Shown here piece after piece: positions 221-28,290 of a stretch of 35,630 bases of DNA. The notes beneath the pieces were generated by a model. That model did not search any database. It was not told where the DNA came from and saw nothing but the letters and a program-made list of their open reading frames with translations. Numbering within the stretch: the stretch's first letter is position 1; every line of letters starts with the position of its first letter. This DNA is from Rhizaria sp. SCN 62-66 (taxonomy: Eukaryota), in assembly GCA_001724265.1 (NCBI GenBank), contig MEDY01000316.1, positions 1 through 35,630 of the forward strand, in the 5' to 3' direction. Made by a program: the position numbers and the translations under genes.

Positions 221-2683
221 ATGGCGAGCGACCCTAGTCAAATGACTCCGTCACAGCTTCAATACTTCGCTCTCCTGCACACCGAAATTAGCCGCGCCAT
301 TGATCTGACGCCAGATTGCAGCGCTTTGTCGAAGCTTAGCAGTGCCCTTTTCTGCTCTCCTCATGTTGACGTGCTTTGCTAAAGTGGGGTTGTTCAACTC
401 CTTCTGCAGTCGCTGATATTCTCTGGTGATGTGGAAGCAAACCCAGCTTTCACAGATGCTGTCATGGAACGGTCCAAGATCATCATCAGGTTTCTTGAAC
501 AGGTGCCTATGTACGCTGGTGGTCGTGAACACCTTGCAGACTGCTTCACTGTTGAAAAAATTGCAGCTATTCTGCCTCGTCTCTCGCAACTGGGCCTAGT
601 GAAGGAAATTCTCGAGCTTATTGACAGTCTTTCTCAAAAGATACTCCTCACTATGCCTGTCAGGAGCGCTACTTTGGCGCACCTGCTGACCTTTGTGCGC
701 GAAATGGAGCATTTTGTGCGTCAACAACCGGAATCCGCGCCCGAGTACGACTCTGACATCTTCCCCATCCTGCTTTACTCACTGAGGGAACTTGCATCGA
801 GTCGCTCTGAAGATCCGATTGCCGGACCACAAGCTCCGTACGCATCCGTTGCTGCCTTTGTTCCGCTGATACGTGGCGTTATCCGCCGCAATTTATCGCC
901 CGATGCTAATAGTCAGGCCGCCCGCAATGCTGCCTATAGCGCACTGTTCAAGATTTTCCTTAACGACGGCAATAGCAGCGATGATAATGATAGCAACGGT
1001 AGTAACAATGAAGACGCTGTGCAGCGCCGAAACGGTTTGTTGGATTTTGTTCTCAGTGACGACTTTGAGCACCTCCTAGACTTATCGGACTCTGGGTCAG
1101 TGGGAGACCTGTGGTCACTGCTTCTTTGTTTTGATGACGCCACGTTTCCGCTTGTATTTACCCAGCAGCGCGTTGAGCGCATGCTCACATCATTGGACGC
1201 AAACCACTGGGGCTCTACGGACAAACTTTCTGTCTTTATGAGCGTGCTTGCGCTGCTGGCAGAACAGATTCCTGTGTTTGCTCAAAAACTTCCTTATGAG
1301 CCTGATTTTGGAAAGATTCTTGGTTTTATTCAAGATAACATCTCGTATGATGATTTGATTGCTCAGAGTTTACTGCCGATTCACACTGTGGAAGTACTTG
1401 ACAGAATTTTAAGCGCTAGCTCTGATGAAACGCACGTGGCACACCAGTTGCTTTCTTATGGCGCTGTCAAGCTTTGCTGCATACTATTGAGATATTATCT
1501 TGTTTCAGATCGCAGTTCGTTGGGAGAGCACCATAACACGCTGCGCCTTCGTGTTCTACGTGTTCTTCTTAGCTCCAGTACCGCCCCGTCTAACCTTGCT
1601 GTTCACGACAGCGATGCTGCTCCGGAGAACCCATTCTTGACCGAGTTTATTAGAGCTCGAGGGCCGCAAGCGCTCGAGCTGCTGCGCTATGATGACTGCA
1701 TGCAAAAAAACGACGGTGGCTCAGCTCTGCCTGAGCTATTGCAGCTGCGCGTTCTGCTTGCGAACAGTGACGCTGGTGTGCATGATATAGCTGCAACTAA
1801 TGAGCTGTGCGTCCAGACTACCGCAGAGATGCGTGTGTTTGTGCAGCCGACAAGTGGATGGCAAGACGCCTTTGATGCGCACATTGCGTGCAGTCTGGAA
1901 GAGAGTGGCTTCCCGCGTCGGGTTAAGTATGATCACAGCGCTGATGATTATCAGACTCTGCCAGCTCCCCTGCGGGCCAACTGCGTGCCATCGACAGCTG
2001 CAGTGGCTCTGCTGCAAGCCAGGGCGCGCGAGCGCATTTTGCTTTATAGCCGTGATAACATTGTTGCTTGCCACAGGATATCGGATGTCGTAATGGGAAT
2101 GAAATTTGTTGGTTCGTTGCAGAGCGAGTACTGCAAGGTGATCCGACTCGACAACAAGAGGTTCCCCTGCAATGCTGCACACTTTTGTGTGGCAGCAGGA
2201 CAGGCTCTCATTGGCAACCGCATCCATACGTGCTTTGTGCCGCCTGGGGTGACATCGCTGCCGTATGTCACGTTCTACCACAGTAGTGACTATGCCCCCT
2301 GTGCCTCCGCGCCTCTGAGGCTTCCTGACAGCGACATTGTCTATGGCGAGTACACTGAGCCGCATGTGGTTGCTGACACGGGCGAGACCGCGACATATGC
2401 CGTCGGTACTGTGCTGATGTATCCCCGTGCCGTCCTACCAGTGCAGTCAACGGACACACCGTGGTTCATCGTTTTCAAACCTTGCGCGATAAGCCTTCTG
2501 CGGGGTGCCGTACCCGTCGGTCGCGTCATTTCGTGTGTTGAAGGAAACGAGCCTAGACTTCATGACAGTGGGTCTGAGCCCTTCAACGCTGCAGTGTTGC
2601 GATGCTTCGAGTCGCAATATGAGGCTAATGAATGCCGAGGTGCGACCATTGCATTTAAGGCATTTAGGGCTGCTGCGCAGTAG
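221..2683 (+). CDS. Uncharacterised protein of ~820 codons with a Leu-rich helical (ARM/HEAT-like) N-terminal region and a beta-rich C-terminal domain; contains an in-frame TAA at 380-382
   Basis: The 750-codon ORF 431-2683 starts at GTG. An ATG at 221 lies in the same frame (MASDPSQMTPSQLQYFALLHTEISRA...), separated only by TAA 380-382. Its context (ACACG-ATG) matches the Sec8 start. The ORF ends at TAG 2681-2683, with an in-frame TGA at 2693-2695. No family was confidently recognised. Confidence 0.7.
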
Positions 2684-3049
2684 CACTCAAATTGACTTTA
2701 TCATATTTATAAACCAGATTTTAGATGTCACTCCATCATTGATTTCAATAATTTTTGTTTTTTTTGTTTGAATATTTTTAAGCTATTTTCTGTCGTTCTA
2801 TTTTTAGATCGCTTGAAAACAATTCAAAATAATCAAACATGCAGTGACTGTAGACTGCAAATGAAGTAAAGAAACAAATATAGTGAATTTATAATTAAAA
2901 AAAGGATTGTGTATTAAAACTTAATGAAATCTACAGTTGTATACGTATTGACAGATAAATATACGTGCATTACCGTATGTAAACACCAATTTTCGCCAGA
3001 CACTCTCAGACTCGAGGCGAGGTGACGTGAGAGACGTTTGTGCGTGAAA

Positions 3050-20835: not shown

Positions 20836-21451
20836 GCGAGGCTGGCCGTTCAAGAGATGCCGGTTTCTTGCTCCTCTCAACGATGCCGCAGAACTCATCA
20901 GTTTAGAGAGCCTATACCTGCGCTACTTCTTGCAGAATTGCGGTGGCGCCTCATCCCGCCTTATTATAGCACCATCATGCATTATGACAATACTTTGAGG
21001 AGACAGCCCCACATAGTGAACATAAACACAAGTTTAGAGTTCGTTTGTGGTGCACAGCTCCTACAAAACGACTAAGTCAAAAATATAGATACAACAAATC
21101 CGTCGTTTGGAATTTCGAATAAATACACAAAACTAGCGTAATATACGCACACGTATCACAAAATTATACCCAGAATAAAGGACGGGTTACGGATATTGTT
21201 TGTCTTGAAAGCTGGCACGAGTCAAACTCGCGACTGACTCTTGCACACTCGATACAGTTTCTGTTTCTTATCTACTTCTCGGACTCGACCCCTAGAAGGT
21301 TTTTTAAGGCACATTCTACCGATGCTCTATGGCCGTCAGATGATGCATAGCTACTCTATATAGACATTCCATTATGCATTATTTTGCATCACTCCTTACC
21401 CAAGCTCACATATCCCGTTTTGGCTCTACGCTGCTCTTGTCTACGCGAAGC

Positions 21452-22813
21452 ATGAGCTCCCCGTCTCCCAACGCAGGCGCTTCCGGCTGCCCTGTCAACC
21501 ACAAGGCCATGCCTCCTGGTACGTCTCTAACACGCTTTCGACAAAGTCCACTGACCTCTATTATCTTATTTACTCCCTTACACCGTCGCTGTTCTTTGTT
21601 TACATTCTGTACTCCCACTTAGCCGACGGCTGCCCCGTTGCGCATGGCGGCGCTGCCCCTTCCGCCGCCGCCGCCTCTGGCGCCGCGGCTGCCTACCCCG
21701 ACGCGTGCCCCATGTCCAGCAACTCCTCCGCTGTGCTCATGGCTGCCGCTTCCGCCACCGCGGCCTCCGTTGCCGCCCAGCAGCAGAAGCAGCAGGCCCA
21801 GGCTCAGCAGCAGCAGGCTCAGCAACAGGGTTTGCCTCCTCGTGAGTTCCTCCCCGGCGCGCCGACGTTCCCCGTCGCGTACCGCGTGCGCGAGGAGACC
21901 GGCACGGGCGTTGTCGGTGACGTGTTCCCGGACTCGCGCCCCATCGCCGGCCAGCGCCGCCCGCTCTCGACGCTCCCCTCTCGCTCAATCATCCCCAAGG
22001 CCTTCCCGGCCCCCGCCGCCGCCGACGCCGGCGCTAAGCCCGCGCCCGCGCCCGGGGCGCTGCCCGCGACGGCCAGCAACGCTGTCGTACCCGCCGAGCT
22101 TGCGCCCGCCAAGGTCGGGTCGATCGCGCTCACTGGCGCGGCCAATAGCAACAGCAGCAGTGACCCTGCGGCGCTCGTGTGCACCAGCGACGCCATTGGT
22201 GGCGACGCGGTACGTCGAACTTACACTCGATGTTTATCCACCAAATGATTGCCATTTATGGTAATAATGTAATGACGAAATGATATCTTGCGAGTGCGCA
22301 CCCATCTTAACATTGATATTCCGCGTCTCATTTTCATCGACTTATGATTATTTGTTTTCTTAGACTGAGGAGACTTGGACGTTCCCTTCGCAGCAGCGCT
22401 TCTACAACGCGATGAAGAAGAAGGGCTGGAACCCGCGCGAGGAGGACCTGCCGTACATCGTCTCCATTCATAACACCATCAACGAGCAATGCTGGCGCAA
22501 GGTCATGGCCTTCGAGGCACTCCACGCAGACTCGTGCGCAACGCCGAAACTGCTCCGTTTCCAGGGCTTGCCGACCGAGTACTCGCTCAAGGCGCGGTTT
22601 AAGTCGTGGATGGGGTACGTGCTGCCATTCGACCGGCACGACTGGACGGTGGATCGCTGCGGCAAACACGTGCGGTACATCATCGACTTCTACAACGGGC
22701 CCGACGACCCGACGCGCCCGGCCACCGTGTACCTCGACGTGCGGCCCGCGCCCACGCTCGGCGGCGTCGTCGACCGCGCGCGCATGTGGTGGAAGAACCT
22801 CTTCACCATCTGA
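21452..22813 (+). CDS. HCCS: Holocytochrome c synthase (cytochrome c/c1 heme lyase, System III), 367 aa; exons 21452-21518, 21623-22209, 22364-22813
   Basis: N-terminal heme-regulatory CP motifs (GCPVNH, GCPVAH, ACPM). Conserved blocks WTFPSQQRFYNAMKKKGW, IVSIHNTINEQCW (heme-ligand His), PFDRHDWTVDRCGKHVRYIIDFY and YLDVRPA. Stop is TGA. Confidence 0.95.
21519..21622 (+). other. HCCS intron 1 (104 nt, phase 1)
   Basis: CCTG|GTACGT...CCCACTTAG|CCGAC. Pyrimidine-rich. Removal restores the frame. Confidence 0.88.
22210..22363 (+). other. HCCS intron 2 (154 nt, phase 0)
   Basis: GACGCG|GTACGT...TTTTCTTAG|ACTGAG. Removal joins exon 2 to the conserved W-x-F-P-S block. Confidence 0.92.
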
Positions 22814-23293
22814 GTGAGCTATGATACGGGGAAAACACAGCAGTGCGCATGTTTAGGTGTGCGCGCGTGCGTTAGTATTTAAGTTAGTTTGGGTGCTCGG
22901 AGTGGAGCGGCAGGTGACAGCTGCTGTGAGCAGGAGGGCCAAGAATGATATGAGATTGATGAGCTGTGACCGTCATACAACATTTAACATATTGATACGA
23001 ATGTATTTATTGGTATTTCCTATTCATTCCTTTTTGTACTTTGTAAGCTTGTGATAGACGCTCTGCAACCACACTTGAAATTTATACAACATGCACTGCG
23101 TGCGCCGACGCAAATCTTGGCTACTTTATCACGATAACACACAGTCACATCACTTTTAAGACGCATATTTTCTCTTCGCGACATTTATGCGCGTTTATTT
23201 TCATCTGGTTTCTGTAGTTAATCTTAGAACTCCTATTGTAGCTCTGGAGAGACGTTCGGCAAATCCCCGTTCGATCAGACGGGAGCTTTCCCA

Positions 23294-26200
23294 ATGCTCA
23301 ATGCCTCTTCCACCATGCAACGTCGCGTGACACCAGCCGCGCTGCTCATCTTCTTTTTTGCATGCACAGCACTGCCCCATGTTGCCTTTGCGCATCTTGA
23401 GTCTGTGGCCACGCCCACTCTTGCTGTCCCAGCTGGAGCTGAGCCCGGTGAGCCTCCAACTCTATCGCTGTCAGAGCCCTCGCTGCTGCCACTCGAGCTC
23501 GCTGCCCTGCCTGAGCTCCCCACCGCCTCCGCAGGCACCAGCATGGCGACATCGCTCCGCTCCCACCTCCTCGCCGAGTCCCGCGCTCTCCGCGTGCCCG
23601 CCATCGCGTTCTTTCCCCCCGACCGTGCGAGCTCTGGCAAGGCCTCATCTAGCACTGACACCGCTTCGAGTCACAGCGACAAGGCCGCAGAGGCGCCGCT
23701 GTGGGACCTGTTGCCGCTGCTTGCGCGCGGAGGAGCCCCTGGCGCCGCGGAGGCCGAGCCAGTACCCGTGGTTGTGTTGGCCGGCAGTGCAGTGCATAGG
23801 CTGCCCGCCGTCGCCGCTGTCACGCCGAAGCTGCAGCGCCCCAGCTCGAACTCTGACGCCGATGCTGACTCGGACTCGGACTCTGGCGCCGACGCTAGCA
23901 AAGTGCGCTCTGATAATGGAGGCAGTGCGCACGTAGTCGCGCCGTCAGCAGACGCTGTGTTTGCGGCCAAGACACTCAACGCTGTCGCAACAGCGACACG
24001 GTCACACATCTTAGCGGCTCTGAAGAGCAAGGACGCGTTTAATGATGCGAATGATTACGATAACACAGCGAACATTGCAGCACAAACCGAGAACGCCGTG
24101 CGTCGTTACGTTCTTGCTTCCCCACTCTGCCGCGCTCCACTCTCAGCCACAAACATAAACACAAACACAAACACAGCCCCAGGCACAGGGGCGGATGTGG
24201 ATGCAGACGTGGACGTCGCGTTGGATCCCGCTGCGGTTGCGCTCTCCGCAGCGCTGGCGCGTCCGGACCCCTTATCGCCGCGCGCGGTTGCCGCAGCGCT
24301 TGTTCTGCTACACTCCTAGAAGTCAGGCCGCGCCGACTCGAAGTCAAGCCGCGCGCAACGGTGTGCGCACGCCGTGTCTGCGGCAGCGACGGCGCTGTTC
24401 CAGCTCCGGTGCGCCGACGCCGCGGCCGCCGCTCTACTCACAGTCACCTCCACCAGCCGTGTTTCTGGAGACAGTGTTTCCGTCCTGGCTGCGGTGCTGC
24501 GCGAGGGCAGCTCGAACGCCGGCACTGGCACGGTCACCGCACGCGCGCTCGCACTTGCCGCGGCCGCCGCGCTGCCGCCGCTGTCCCCGTGCACCCTTGC
24601 TTTCACCGGCACATACGCTGACGCCGACTCTGAGACTGCAGAGTCTCACCCTGATTCCGAATCAGAGACCGGGACCGGCGGCAGTGACGCTCTCTGCTTT
24701 CTGTCCGCGCCCACGCTCTCCACCGCGGTGCGCACGCTCCTGTGCCCAGCGGCGCGGCTGCGGCACGTGGAGGCCTCGGTCGCGGGCCGCGTACTGCGCT
24801 TCCGCGACGGCGCCGCGCCGCTGCGCCCGCTCACTCTCGCGGACGCCTTCGTCGCCACTGCCGACTCTGCCTAGTTAAGCACCGCGCAGTCTAGCGCGCA
24901 GCACTTTGCCGGTGAGGCGGAGGCGCAGGCTGCGGCCGCGGCAGCCACGTCACAGCTGTACCAGCGCCACGCCTGGGCCCAGGATGTTCTTTACGCACGC
25001 TCACAGCCGCAACCGCAGTCATCCCCGAGTGTCCGCGGCGCGAGCAGTGCGCCCAACGGCGACATCGGCGCGGTCGCCGCGGTGCGCAGTGAACGCAACG
25101 GGCGGCTGTGGATGCAGCGCGACTTGCACAGCGTTCCAGCCGCGGCCGCCATGGTCGCCACAGGCGCCGTCGCAGCCGGCGCTGCGGGCGCAACGCAGTC
25201 TCCGGCGGCACGGCCCGCAGCGACTGCAAGTGCCGGTATGGACAGTGTGCCCGCGGACAAGGACGGCGGAGGAACTGTGCGCGGTGTCGCTTTTGGCGCT
25301 TTGCCGGACTGGGAGGCGTGTTTGATTGCGCGGCAGCGCGAGCGTGTCGGCGCGCCTTGGCGGCCCCCGTCCTCTCTTGCACTGTATTCACACCAGCAGC
25401 AACAACAGCTGCAAGAGAGTCAATACTGCGCTGCACCTTGTGTCTATGTCTCTGCCTCGGGTGCGGTGGGCCCCATTGCAGCGCTGGCGGCTGCGGCTGA
25501 CTTGTTTGCGCCCCGTTGCTGGTCGCATCATTTCCTCGCTGCCTCATATCCTCCAATTTTGACAGCGAAACGCGCCGTGAACACCAAATTGGCCCGCAGC
25601 ACAACTGCAGCGCACAACAACGACGGTGTATCACAGTACGACGAGAGCTCTGGCCCGTGGCTTTACGTCCACACCTCCGTCCCGTCTCTTCCGGCCTCTC
25701 TGCGCGCCCCCCTGCTCCCGCCGCAGCGCCTCGCTATCTCGCTGGCCGACGCCAACGCCGCGGCGCAGCTCCCCGGCGCGCCCGCCGCGCTGGCGACCGC
25801 GCTGGCTGGCGGATCGGGGCTGGACTGGCTGTGCGCCGGGCTGGGCCGCCAGCAGCACGGGTATGCCGCGGCGGCCACGCAGGCGAACGTGTGGGTCGGC
25901 GGCCGCGGCGTCACCACGCACTTGCACACCGACGCGTTTCACAACCTCTACGCGCAGATCGCGGGCCGCAAGCGGTTTGTGTTGTTTCCGCCGCGCAGTA
26001 TTATCACCGCGTCCGCCGCCGCGGCCCGCAAGGCAGCGCGCCGCCGTCCCGCTCGGGACAGCAATAACAGTAGCAGTAGCAGCACGAACGCCGGCGCTGC
26101 TGCGACAACTGCGGTGCCGTGGAGCGGCGACGGGGGCGGCTATGGCGGGCGTTGGCTGCATTCGCATTCGCGCTTGCATCCGCACGTGCACCAGAGCACT

Positions 26201-28290
26201 GTCGAAGGTACGGAAGAGCTGATGCACGGCTATTTAGTCTGGGCTGCGGCGCGTGAAAGTGCAAAAACCGCGCGCAATGCGCGCCATGAGCAAGCGAGTG
26301 ACCGTGAGCGGACTGGGGGGCAGTGGGCGTCGTTTGACCCTGTCACCGGCCTAGCGCTGGCGGCGCGCTCTCCCGGCTCGGTGACTATGCCCCCAGTTTG
26401 GGCCTACGTGCGCTGGCTCGAGGCCCGGCACTCTACTCACAGTTACAGTCAGAGTCGCAATGCCCACAGTCATGTTAACCGAGACTCAGTTAGCGCATTT
26501 GCCAACCACAGCTCGCCTGTTGCGGCCGCCGCCTTTGCGCCGGCGCCGAGTGTGCCACGCGCGTGCCAGCTGCCTTGCCCACTCTCTTTCAGACCCACCG
26601 ACAAGGACAGCAAGAGCACTGCGACAAAGATGACGAAGGAGTCTGTGGCGGCGCACTGCCGCGCGTGGTGCGCGATTGCAGGCTCCGGCCACTGGCCCTA
26701 CTGGCGCAAGGCAATCACTGACACCGGCGCGCGCGCTGCCACCGAAGCCGCCGCCCGCGCCAGTCGACGCAACAGCAATACCAACGGCACCGCTGGCGCG
26801 CACAGCAACACTGACTCTGTCTCTGTCGGCGGCGCTGACTCGAGCGACGACACTGCGGAAGACTACGGTGCCGACGACGCCGCCGTGCCCGGGTGGCGGC
26901 CGCTCGTGGTGACTCTGTCCCCCGGTGACGTGCTATATCTCCCGCCGCTGTGGGCCCACCACGTCACCGCGATCGGCGCCCAGCCGCAAATCGCGGACAC
27001 TGTGGCGGACACGGCGCTGCACCGGCACCGCGCTGAGGCGACGGTTGACGCCGCGGTGAATGCGGGCGCGGTGAGTGCGAGTGTGAATCTGTGGTGCCCG
27101 TCTGAGCTGCACAGGCTGGGCACAATCCTCCAGAGCTCCGTGTCAAAACCCTTTGAAGTACGTCTATAACATCGATATTTCGTATCAAACAAAGGTATTA
27201 TGAACGCCATATAGCTATCTCTGTTTTATTAAAGTTATCATACTAATCATTGTTCTGGTTTCTATTGGAAATTCTCACTTGTTCCCAGCCCGAGTGGCCG
27301 CCGCTGCTGCGCGTCGCGCTGACGCGAGTCTGGCTTTCTCTGTTGCTGCCGCTTCATTTCGGCGCCACGAGGCCCGTGCTTGGCGAGCTGCTACTAGCGC
27401 GCCACACTGACGCAGTGCACGAACACTTCTCACTGCACCACGCGCGCTACAACGTGCAACACCCGCTTCCGCGCAAAACCAAGAGCAAGAGCAGCAGTAG
27501 GGCCAACAAGAAAAGTGAAGACGAGACCGGCGTTGCTGGTGTTGCTGCGTCTGCGCGCGCGACCGGCGGTCCGGCGCCGGTGCTGGATGCCATCTACACC
27601 GAGGAGCGCGCGCTGGCGCTGCTGGCGCACGTGGCGCGGCTGCTGCCCGGCGACCGCGACTGGAACAGGGGCAAGAGTCAGGAGAAGAAGCAAAGCAAGA
27701 ACAAAGATGCGACTAGGCCTGATGTTGCCGTGCTGGCCGGTGCGCAGCGTAGCCTACAGCAGCAGACCCGCGCGTTTGTGCACTCAAGCCCTTACTACTC
27801 CAAACTGTTCAGCAACAGCGACACGTCTGAAGCAGCATCTGTCACCAAGGACAACAGCGAAGCGGCGTCGCAGTTACACCGCGCACCGGGCGCGCCCGTG
27901 GCGAACGACCCTTCCCAGCCGTTCCACTTCGACATCCCGGCGCCGGAGCCGACGCAGCTGCTGGCGACGGCGTGCGCGGCGCCCTCGGCCGACGCCGCGC
28001 TGGCCGCGCTGCCGTTCGTGGCCGACTTCGCGGAACGCATGGGCATGCGTGCGGCGGCCATGGAGGCCGCGCAGGTCGTGGCGGACCACCCCGAGGGAAC
28101 AAACCCGGCCGCGCCTGCTCTGGGGCTCGCGGAGAAGGAGACAGCGCTACTGGACTATGTCGAGCGCGTGCTGATGGAGGCGCTGGGGGCGGAGTATGCG
28201 CACTTGTATGAGCCGCTGGTGCTGGGGTGCTTCTACGGGGATTTGCTCAAGGCTCATGCGCGGTTGCATGCGATTGAGGGGCTTGTGTGA
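23294..28290 (+). CDS. JmjC-domain (cupin-like; FIH/JMJD5/HSPBAP1-type) 2-oxoglutarate/Fe(II) oxygenase with a putative signal peptide; ~1620 codons with two in-frame TAGs; exons 23294-27157 and 27289-28290
   Basis: Catalytic blocks NVWVGGRGVTTHLHTDAFHNLYAQIAGRKRFVLFPP (HxD, 2OG-binding Lys) and LSPGDVLYLPPLWAHHV...SASVNLW (distal His). ORFs 23294-24319, 24374-24874 and 25082-27169 share one frame, broken only by TAG 24317-24319 and TAG 24872-24874. The N-terminus is hydrophobic (ALLIFFFACTALPHVAFA). An alternative start CCACC-ATG lies at 23315. It could be a recent pseudogene. Confidence 0.8.
27158..27288 (+). other. JmjC gene intron (131 nt, phase 0)
   Basis: TTTGAA|GTACGT...TACTAAT...GTTCCCAG|CCCGAG. 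AT-rich with a branch-point-like CTAAT. Removal joins KPFE to PEWPP. Confidence 0.9.

Follow-up and report, generated by a model that had tools for sequence, protein, structure and literature searches.

A candidate nuclear code with UAG as glutamate and UAA and UGA as stops, seen from a JmjC gene of an uncultured, probably rhizarian eukaryote

Few nuclear codes treat UAG differently from UAA. Of those described, the ones that reassign only UAG read it as leucine (exLh and three TARA ciliates) or as glutamine (Iotanema, Hartmannula, and Trochilia) (PMC5304391, PMC11687900). In the accessible parts of the sources, UAG is described as glutamate only where UAA is a sense codon as well, as in peritrichs, Blastocrithidia, and Oligohymenophorea sp. 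PL0344 (PMC11687900, PMC5304391, PMC10553269). Here we analyzed a stretch of 35,630 nucleotides from Rhizaria sp. SCN 62-66 (GenBank assembly GCA_001724265.1, contig MEDY01000316.1, positions 1 to 35,630; hereafter the window), which carries a JmjC/Cupin_8 gene with two in-frame TAG codons. The results indicate that UAG is almost certainly a sense codon throughout this genome and that it probably encodes glutamate, with UAA and UGA as stops, which would constitute a variant nuclear code.

The nearest precedents are exLh (UAG as Leu) and Iotanema spirale (UAG as Gln), in which UAG is likewise sense, UAA and UGA are stops, and a CUA tRNA is predicted; here, by contrast, the residue is most likely Glu and the CUA tRNA gene has been identified (PMC5304391). 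The UAG-only codes of phyllopharyngean and TARA ciliates also use CUA tRNAs that come from the normal tRNA of the new residue, but both the residue and the lineage are others, and UAG occurs in 78–91% of their genes, compared with 0.17 per 1000 codons here (PMC11687900). With regard to glutamate itself, PL0344 likewise reads UAG as Glu via tRNA-Glu-derived CUA tRNAs; however, its UAA specifies Lys and only UGA stops, whereas UAA is a stop here (PMC10553269). Peritrichs and Blastocrithidia also place Glu at UAG, but read UAA as Glu too, whereas TAA never continued as coding in our unselected sample (PMC11687900, PMC5304391). The literature that we searched, whose coverage left out most subscription papers and supplements, contained no prior report of UAG as Glu with UAA as a stop. 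If true, this combination would be a nuclear code not described before, found outside the ciliates and with both its tRNA gene and its release factor gene identified.

In-frame TAG codons in the JmjC/Cupin_8 gene and across the genome

An earlier note on this DNA had described three consecutive open reading frames (ORFs) in one frame, divided only by TAG. This was borne out: the ORFs at 23228-24319, 24320-24874, and 24875-27169 share a frame with TAG alone between them, and 23294-27157 reads through as 1288 codons with two TAGs, no TAA, no TGA, and no frameshift. A coding model trained on the genome itself favored this frame in 13 of 13 intervals of 300 nt, by 20–64 bits over the best alternative, and the coding scores on the two sides of the second TAG were 13 and 15 bits. 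A DNA run of another study (X3) yielded one contig over 24219-25316 with no other letters and no gaps, in which TAG is kept at 24317 and 24872 and no sense codon replaces it; this independent, letter-identical contig rules out sequencing or assembly error at both sites. In addition, a polyA RNA library (X6), which may include DNA, yielded a contig that is identical over 24219-24587 and carries the first TAG unspliced and unedited. The RNA contigs of X5 and X6 are too thin to reveal splicing or expression of the JmjC gene, and none of the listed RNA pieces spans the second TAG; sequencing runs with a share of 0.11 or less were not used. Two other runs have a T>C change at 23395, which is upstream of both TAGs and silent (third codon position).

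The gene begins with a hydrophobic segment that resembles a signal peptide, as had been noticed (maximum hydropathy 2.62 over 12 residues), the N-terminal half of the protein is of low complexity, and the codon bias of the gene is weak. Of the two JmjC features proposed earlier, the HxD...H core stands and, like a Cupin_8 match (PF13621, E 1.8e-22), lies downstream of both TAGs, whereas the N-terminal motif is a resemblance only: the PVVVLAGSAVHRLPAV stretch looks like the N-terminal motif of a 112-homologue profile but gave no scored match to it, even with filters off. A search of 1.84 billion representative proteins found no homologue upstream of residue ~730, and the single sister-lineage orthologue that it returned is 55% identical over residues 730 onward only. 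The JmjC gene alone thus cannot reveal the residue inserted at UAG. If UAG is decoded as sense, the gene is intact and encodes a single protein of ~1620 residues, which we consider probable; the protein collection holds the gene in separate pieces, and standard gene callers split genes of this organism at UAG.

The genome comprises 34.9 Mb in 714 contigs. An unselected sample of 500 kb from 10 contigs (<3% of the genome) was scanned for stops that follow 30 coding-like codons, and coding continued past 11 of 21 TAGs, 0 of 45 TAAs, and 2 of 37 TGAs (Fisher p = 1.1e-7 for TAG vs. 2/82 for TAA and TGA). With family-selected loci added, the corresponding figures were 24/49, 2/95, and 4/78. Among 142 matches to the kinase domain (PF00069), nine had a lone TAG (five internal, four at splice acceptors at the match edge), none had a lone TGA, four had mixed stops, and one had a lone TAA, this match being longer than the domain. 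Internal TAGs were also present in eRF1, UBE2J1, a Brr2/ASCC3-like helicase, a DDX46-like helicase, a ubiquitin domain, MORN, zf-PARP, and an ABCA transporter, and in-frame UAG falls on aligned positions at 10 Pfam-domain sites and two helicase sites. No internal TAG was confirmed in 81 DEAD, ABC, and HSP70 matches (DEAD 1/43, an acceptor; ABC 0/20; HSP70 1/18, a weak edge match), and a PF07714 search yielded no further internal sites.

UAG is the rarest sense codon of this genome, at 11 of 63,219 codons, and accounts for ~0.4% of Glu codons, whereas in Iotanema it supplies ~8% of the codons of its residue (PMC5304391). Under the same filter, ATA was counted 28 times, AGA 36, GAA 329, and GAG 2338, such that the AT-rich GAA makes up 12% of Glu codons. 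Plain gene ends, counted automatically with only the TAG cases inspected individually, numbered 46 for TAA, 31 for TGA, and 5 for TAG; the five TAG candidates proved on inspection to be wrong frames or introns, none of them credible. TAA is the commonest stop and ends the eRF1, PIF1, and phosphatase genes, and TGA ends the HCCS and JmjC genes. The earlier statement that other genes of the window have no internal TAG holds, with the qualification that ORF 383-2683 ends in a TAG that precedes a TGA by three codons. Two other kinds of code were rejected: a context-dependent one (Blastocrithidia or Condylostoma type), because TAA and TGA are seen within coding sequence at no more than noise level, and one with UAA as sense (peritrich or PL0344), because none of the 45 TAAs in the unselected sample continue and the pattern search brought up no UUA tRNA.

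The CUA tRNA, eRF1, and the residue at UAG

A search for a CUA-anticodon tRNA, which the earlier note had proposed as a check, found one gene, followed by a poly-T run and located on a contig (C84) with an ordinary kinase gene. Compared with 27 other tRNA types, it is closest to tRNA-Glu(CTC), with 47 of 73 positions identical, followed by tRNA-His and tRNA-Glu(TTC) with 40 each, and least similar to the two tRNA-Gln (29 and 33). Its T-stem is the same throughout as that of tRNA-Glu(CTC), as are acceptor pairs one to five, and a search with its acceptor/T-arm frame recovered the gene itself, eight tRNA-Glu(CTC), one tRNA-Glu(TTC), and nothing else. It also contains U11-A24, U13.G22, A46, no base 47, U35, and A37, which are Glu identity elements in E. 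coli (PMC9976931), and its variable loop has 4 bases. PL0344 possesses 10 CUA genes with 69–93% identity to tRNA-Glu, compared with one gene at 64% here (PMC10553269). The cloverleaf is based on ARAGORN and Rfam, the minimum-energy folding being not significant (z −1.53). The tRNA set is incomplete, as only 63 of 506 candidates were scored in the Rfam tRNA search, which did not recover the CUA gene. A UUA-anticodon pattern search, blind to long introns and odd T-arms, had five hits, none of which is a UUA tRNA. Pyrrolysine, the label that ARAGORN gives to any CUA tRNA, was rejected because the cloverleaf is an ordinary one of the Glu type; no search for PylRS was made.

One eRF1 gene was found, the other PF03463 locus being Pelota-like, and inspection of its N domain revealed altered decoding motifs. 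Relative to 116 homologues, it has T32S, M34V, G57S, T58K, and L124M, each at an otherwise invariant position, as well as L126M and K130Q (human-type numbering), and all seven positions are 94–100% conserved. The G of UAG is contacted by Thr32, for which Iotanema has Gly and the present eRF1 has Ser, and Leu69 is changed in exLh but unchanged here (PMC5304391); on T58K, the accessible text of PMC12440015 holds nothing that bears. Judging from these motifs, loss of UAG recognition is plausible. If true, this would be a natural eRF1 that stops at UAA and UGA and passes UAG, the specificity sought for eukaryotic genetic code expansion. The eRF1 gene has an in-frame TAG of its own (Table 1), placed before the sole AAA among the 16 Lys codons of the exon. 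A metagenome contig scan recovered this TAG with identical letters and the introns kept in a second assembly, along with 31 distant loci and no sister-species DNA. Several metagenome eRF1s (L193, L195-L197, L200-L203, and L208-L212) have a strongly altered TASNIKS or YxCxxxF motif and are candidates for further variant codes.

The homologues aligned to the UAG sites point to an acidic residue in several cases. The eRF1 column holds E in 106 and D in 10 of the 116 homologues, and E 19, Q 3, and K 1 in 23 metagenome loci with the motif; the UBE2J1 column, in 120 homologues, holds D 57, S 14, E 13, and neither Q nor K; and two paralogues of the kinase L110 have D at its TAG site. In polyQ tracts, TAG was counted 3 times, as was GAG, compared with 180 for CAA, the synonym of CAG. 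The CaMK and Brr2/ASCC3 structures offered nothing informative at the TAG column.

Taken as a whole, the earlier proposal that this lineage decodes UAG is supported by the genome-wide in-frame TAGs, the CUA-anticodon tRNA, and the altered eRF1. We propose that a spare duplicated tRNA-Glu gene changed its anticodon from CUC to CUA by a single substitution, giving a tRNA that would pair with UAG, not UAA, and that would be expressed and charged with Glu, presumably by glutamyl-tRNA synthetase. An eRF1 with changed stop-reading motifs would have lost its grip on UAG, and with it most UAG recognition, leaving genes to end in TAA or TGA. Rare new UAGs could then arise by GAG>TAG, which would be silent, or by CAG>TAG, which would be a tolerated Gln-to-Glu change, and be translated; the JmjC gene, with its weak codon bias, may have accumulated two of them in this way.

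Weighing the alternatives

Since both JmjC TAGs are part of a CTAG, they could be 3′ splice acceptors of in-frame introns, or else be edited in the mRNA, and weak in-frame GTGCG donors do lie upstream of both, at 24098 and 24728. However, the candidate introns are 63% and 77% GC and coding-like, whereas four real introns are 32–52% GC, the RNA-library contig (possibly DNA) runs through the first TAG unchanged, and splicing offers no explanation in eRF1 and UBE2J1, which align gap-free across their TAG; we regard this explanation as very improbable. We give even less credence to a JmjC pseudogene with two nonsense mutations, the other TAGs being scattered nonsense alleles. Neither JmjC site is spanned by any homologue, and the N-terminal half is of low complexity, but nonsense mutation should yield TAA and TGA as well as TAG, and both are absent from the 1288 codons and differ sharply from TAG genome-wide (2/82 vs. 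11/21). Moreover, the sole eRF1 found carries its TAG ahead of YxCxxxF and GGQ, and a dedicated CUA tRNA is present. CAG>TAG pseudogenization, which the earlier note had kept as a plausible alternative, is likewise disfavored, given that TAG is found in essential single genes, eRF1 among them.

Glutamate is the likely residue, mainly on tRNA grounds, because the Pfam scores do not distinguish it from Gln and Lys and a number of sites are Gln-like. A number of results weigh against it. The Pfam scores summed over 10 sites (K 903.9, E 903.8, Q 902.1) do not single out Glu. Gln stands at the TAG site in the organism's own ubiquitin paralogues, in human NEK1, and, for the DDX46-like helicase, in DDX5/DDX17; the MORN site favors K and Q over E; and three to four TAGs sit within Gln runs. 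No invariant catalytic Glu is among the TAG sites, the composition of neighboring residues at 22 sites did not discriminate between residues, and at the eRF1 site the nearest relative (84% identical) has a Val, a sign that this lineage no longer constrains the position as tightly. The CUA tRNA furthermore lacks C36, a base that E. coli uses for Glu identity, and amber tRNAs with U35 are known to accept Gln or Lys in that species (PMC9976931). UAG could therefore be sense but encode Gln, or a Glu/Gln mixture, if glutaminyl-tRNA synthetase charged the CUA tRNA via U35 or if tRNA-Gln(CUG) wobbled at the first position, and the Pfam sum for Q is just 1.7 bits below that for E. We nevertheless consider this quite unlikely. 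The body of the CUA tRNA is of the Glu type, Q is absent at the sites in the 116 eRF1 and 120 UBE2J1 homologues, and TAG in polyQ is no commoner than non-synonymous interruptions. Since CAG>TAG is one transition and a conservative change, UAG sites in both E-type and Q-type contexts are expected if UAG is Glu, whereas UAG as Gln would be predicted to show nearly only Q-type contexts. The residues with precedent, Leu and Gln, which had been mentioned at the outset, are probably not the answer: Leu lies 16.5 bits below Glu over the 10 sites (887.3; S 896.4, Y 887.6, and W 880.4 are also disfavored), and the tRNA is Glu-type, with a short 4-base variable loop and no long variable arm.

A further possibility, on balance an unlikely one, would modify the assignment of UAG to Glu and not replace it. 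eRF1 may still partly recognize UAG, such that suppression is leaky, both full-length (Glu-containing) and truncated products are made, and some genes end in UAG. Published UAG-only codes use UAG at 6.5–32%, far above the frequency found here; there is one CUA tRNA copy beside eight of tRNA-Glu(CTC); and E55, NIKS, L69, S70, Y125, C127, and F131 of eRF1, the core residues for UAG reading among them, are unchanged. In human eRF1, T32S left all three stops largely unaffected (PMC3632111). With UAG so strongly avoided, one copy of its tRNA, and an eRF1 core that is intact, UAG could still cause partial termination, and the TAG shortly before the end of ORF 383-2683 could be a single UAG stop. Opposed to this are the want of any credible TAG gene end among the inspected cases, the tolerance of UAG in eRF1, in spliceosomal-type helicases, and twice within one gene, and the seven eRF1 changes at highly conserved positions; UAG could instead be rare because the genome is GC-rich and the reassignment young. 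UAG usage here is ~15–80 times below that of the published cases, and for this reason the organism would allow codon capture and an ambiguous intermediate to be tested directly against each other.

More speculatively, and with lower odds still, the genome may be at an ambiguous-intermediate stage, in which tRNA-Glu(CUA) competes with a partly UAG-terminating eRF1 and the UAG in the eRF1 gene acts as a feedback sensor. Excess eRF1 would then truncate its own synthesis and so fix the level of UAG readthrough, an extension that we hold to be equally doubtful. At the genome-wide frequency of TAG, a gene of 435 codons would contain one by chance with a probability of ~6–7%, and Val in the closest eRF1 relative argues against an old conserved switch. 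Feedback on a release factor is familiar from bacterial RF2, which is controlled by frameshifting. In plants, eRF1 is autoregulated by readthrough at its terminal stop together with nonsense-mediated decay (PMC5397192). The candidate resembles both in that a release factor mRNA would sense the strength of termination, but it differs from the plant loop, as described in the accessible text, in that the hypothetical sensor would be a codon of changed meaning that lies within the coding sequence.

Host, neighboring genes, and other observations

The runs that contain this genome come from bioreactor, wastewater, and activated-sludge samples, and long near-identical pieces are present in wastewater samples of three studies beyond the possible source study. 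Given its presence in at least three further wastewater studies, this uncultured eukaryote should be obtainable. The first five species-named hits of its eIF4AIII are all rhizarian (Plasmodiophora, Amorphochlora, Paulinella, Gymnochlora, and Bigelowiella), whereas the eIF4AIII tree, from a quick and unfinished search, gives no resolved placement, as long branches meet; the eRF1 and UBE2J1 hits carry no rhizarian signal. Ubiquitin starts with MSMQIF, which recalls the one-residue ubiquitin insertion of Rhizaria (PMC6133090), and no polyubiquitin junction was seen. By these sequence comparisons, the host is probably a divergent rhizarian. If it is, this would be a second, independent reassignment of UAG in Rhizaria. 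Exons are GC-rich, and introns are AT-richer and 130–290 nt long; the genome of Rosculus vilicus is 37.7% GC, and the accessible part of its genome paper is silent on the code (PMC10770858).

Table 1. Coordinates of the features discussed (window positions unless a contig or locus is named).
Feature	Position	Strand	Remarks
JmjC/Cupin_8 exon 1	23294..27157	+	1288 codons with TAG as sense
PVVVL stretch PVVVLAGSAVHRLPAV	23765..23812	+	N-terminal motif, resemblance to family profile only
In-frame TAG 1	24317..24319	+	Codon 342, TCC TAG AAG, LLHS*KSGRAD; most likely Glu; seen in X3 (DNA run) and X6 (RNA-library contig)
In-frame TAG 2	24872..24874	+	Codon 527, GCC TAG TTA, ADSA*LSTAQ; most likely Glu; in DNA run X3
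HxD iron-binding motif (His-Thr-Asp)	25925..25933	+	Sequence, profile
Distal His of facial triad	26957..26959	+	Sequence, profile
GT-AG intron	27158..27288	+	131 nt, ~32% GC; exon 2 in frame after it
JmjC exon 2, stop TGA	27289..28290	+	Weak match to C-terminus of homologue profile, E 6.6e-5
TAG three codons before TGA, end of ORF 383-2683	2681..2695	+	Near-terminal sense UAG or single candidate UAG stop
tRNA(CUA), single copy	G000:C84:76008-76080	-	Pattern search (3 hits), ARAGORN 117.8, Rfam tRNA 58 bits
eRF1 in-frame TAG	L001:1594-1596 (G000:C63)	-	Codon 111, mid N domain, before YxCxxxF and GGQ

A sister lineage is present in metagenomes (JGI P0007, P0249, and P0372), with eRF1 84%, eIF4AIII 87%, and JmjC 55% identical. 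Its eRF1 shares M34V, T58K, and L126M, not T32S, and the shared changes suggest that this lineage may have the same code.

Elsewhere in the window, 383-2695 on the plus strand is an ORF of 766 codons that is low in GC, matches no Pfam family, and closes with the TAG and TGA listed in Table 1. It has a weak Atlas lead to DUF3689/armadillo-like families (0.90), and upstream of its first ATG is a stretch without the final GP that we take to be 2A-like. The HCCS gene (21364-22813, plus strand) has a long low-complexity first exon, one intron, and TGA as its stop.

In the remainder of the genome, the 18S rRNA gene (L034:1501-5945, G000:C706) is ~4.4 kb long, AT-rich, and very divergent, with several large insertions that are presumably group I introns. 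The first of these, near 2089, contains an ORF with a His/Cys-rich stretch, which suggests a homing endonuclease, and another ribozyme may be nested there. The ubiquitin genes L158, L159, L161, and L162 are unusually divergent and include two tandem copies with a short tail at the end; L159 has TAG in place of the start codon and many changes and is probably a dead copy. Long Ala/Ser/Gln-rich insertions occur in many housekeeping and helicase genes (L144, L145/L146, and L143/L150), with single exons of up to thousands of codons. A MORN3-like protein (L121:673-1152, minus strand) matches axonemal MORN proteins, which hints that the organism may be flagellated.

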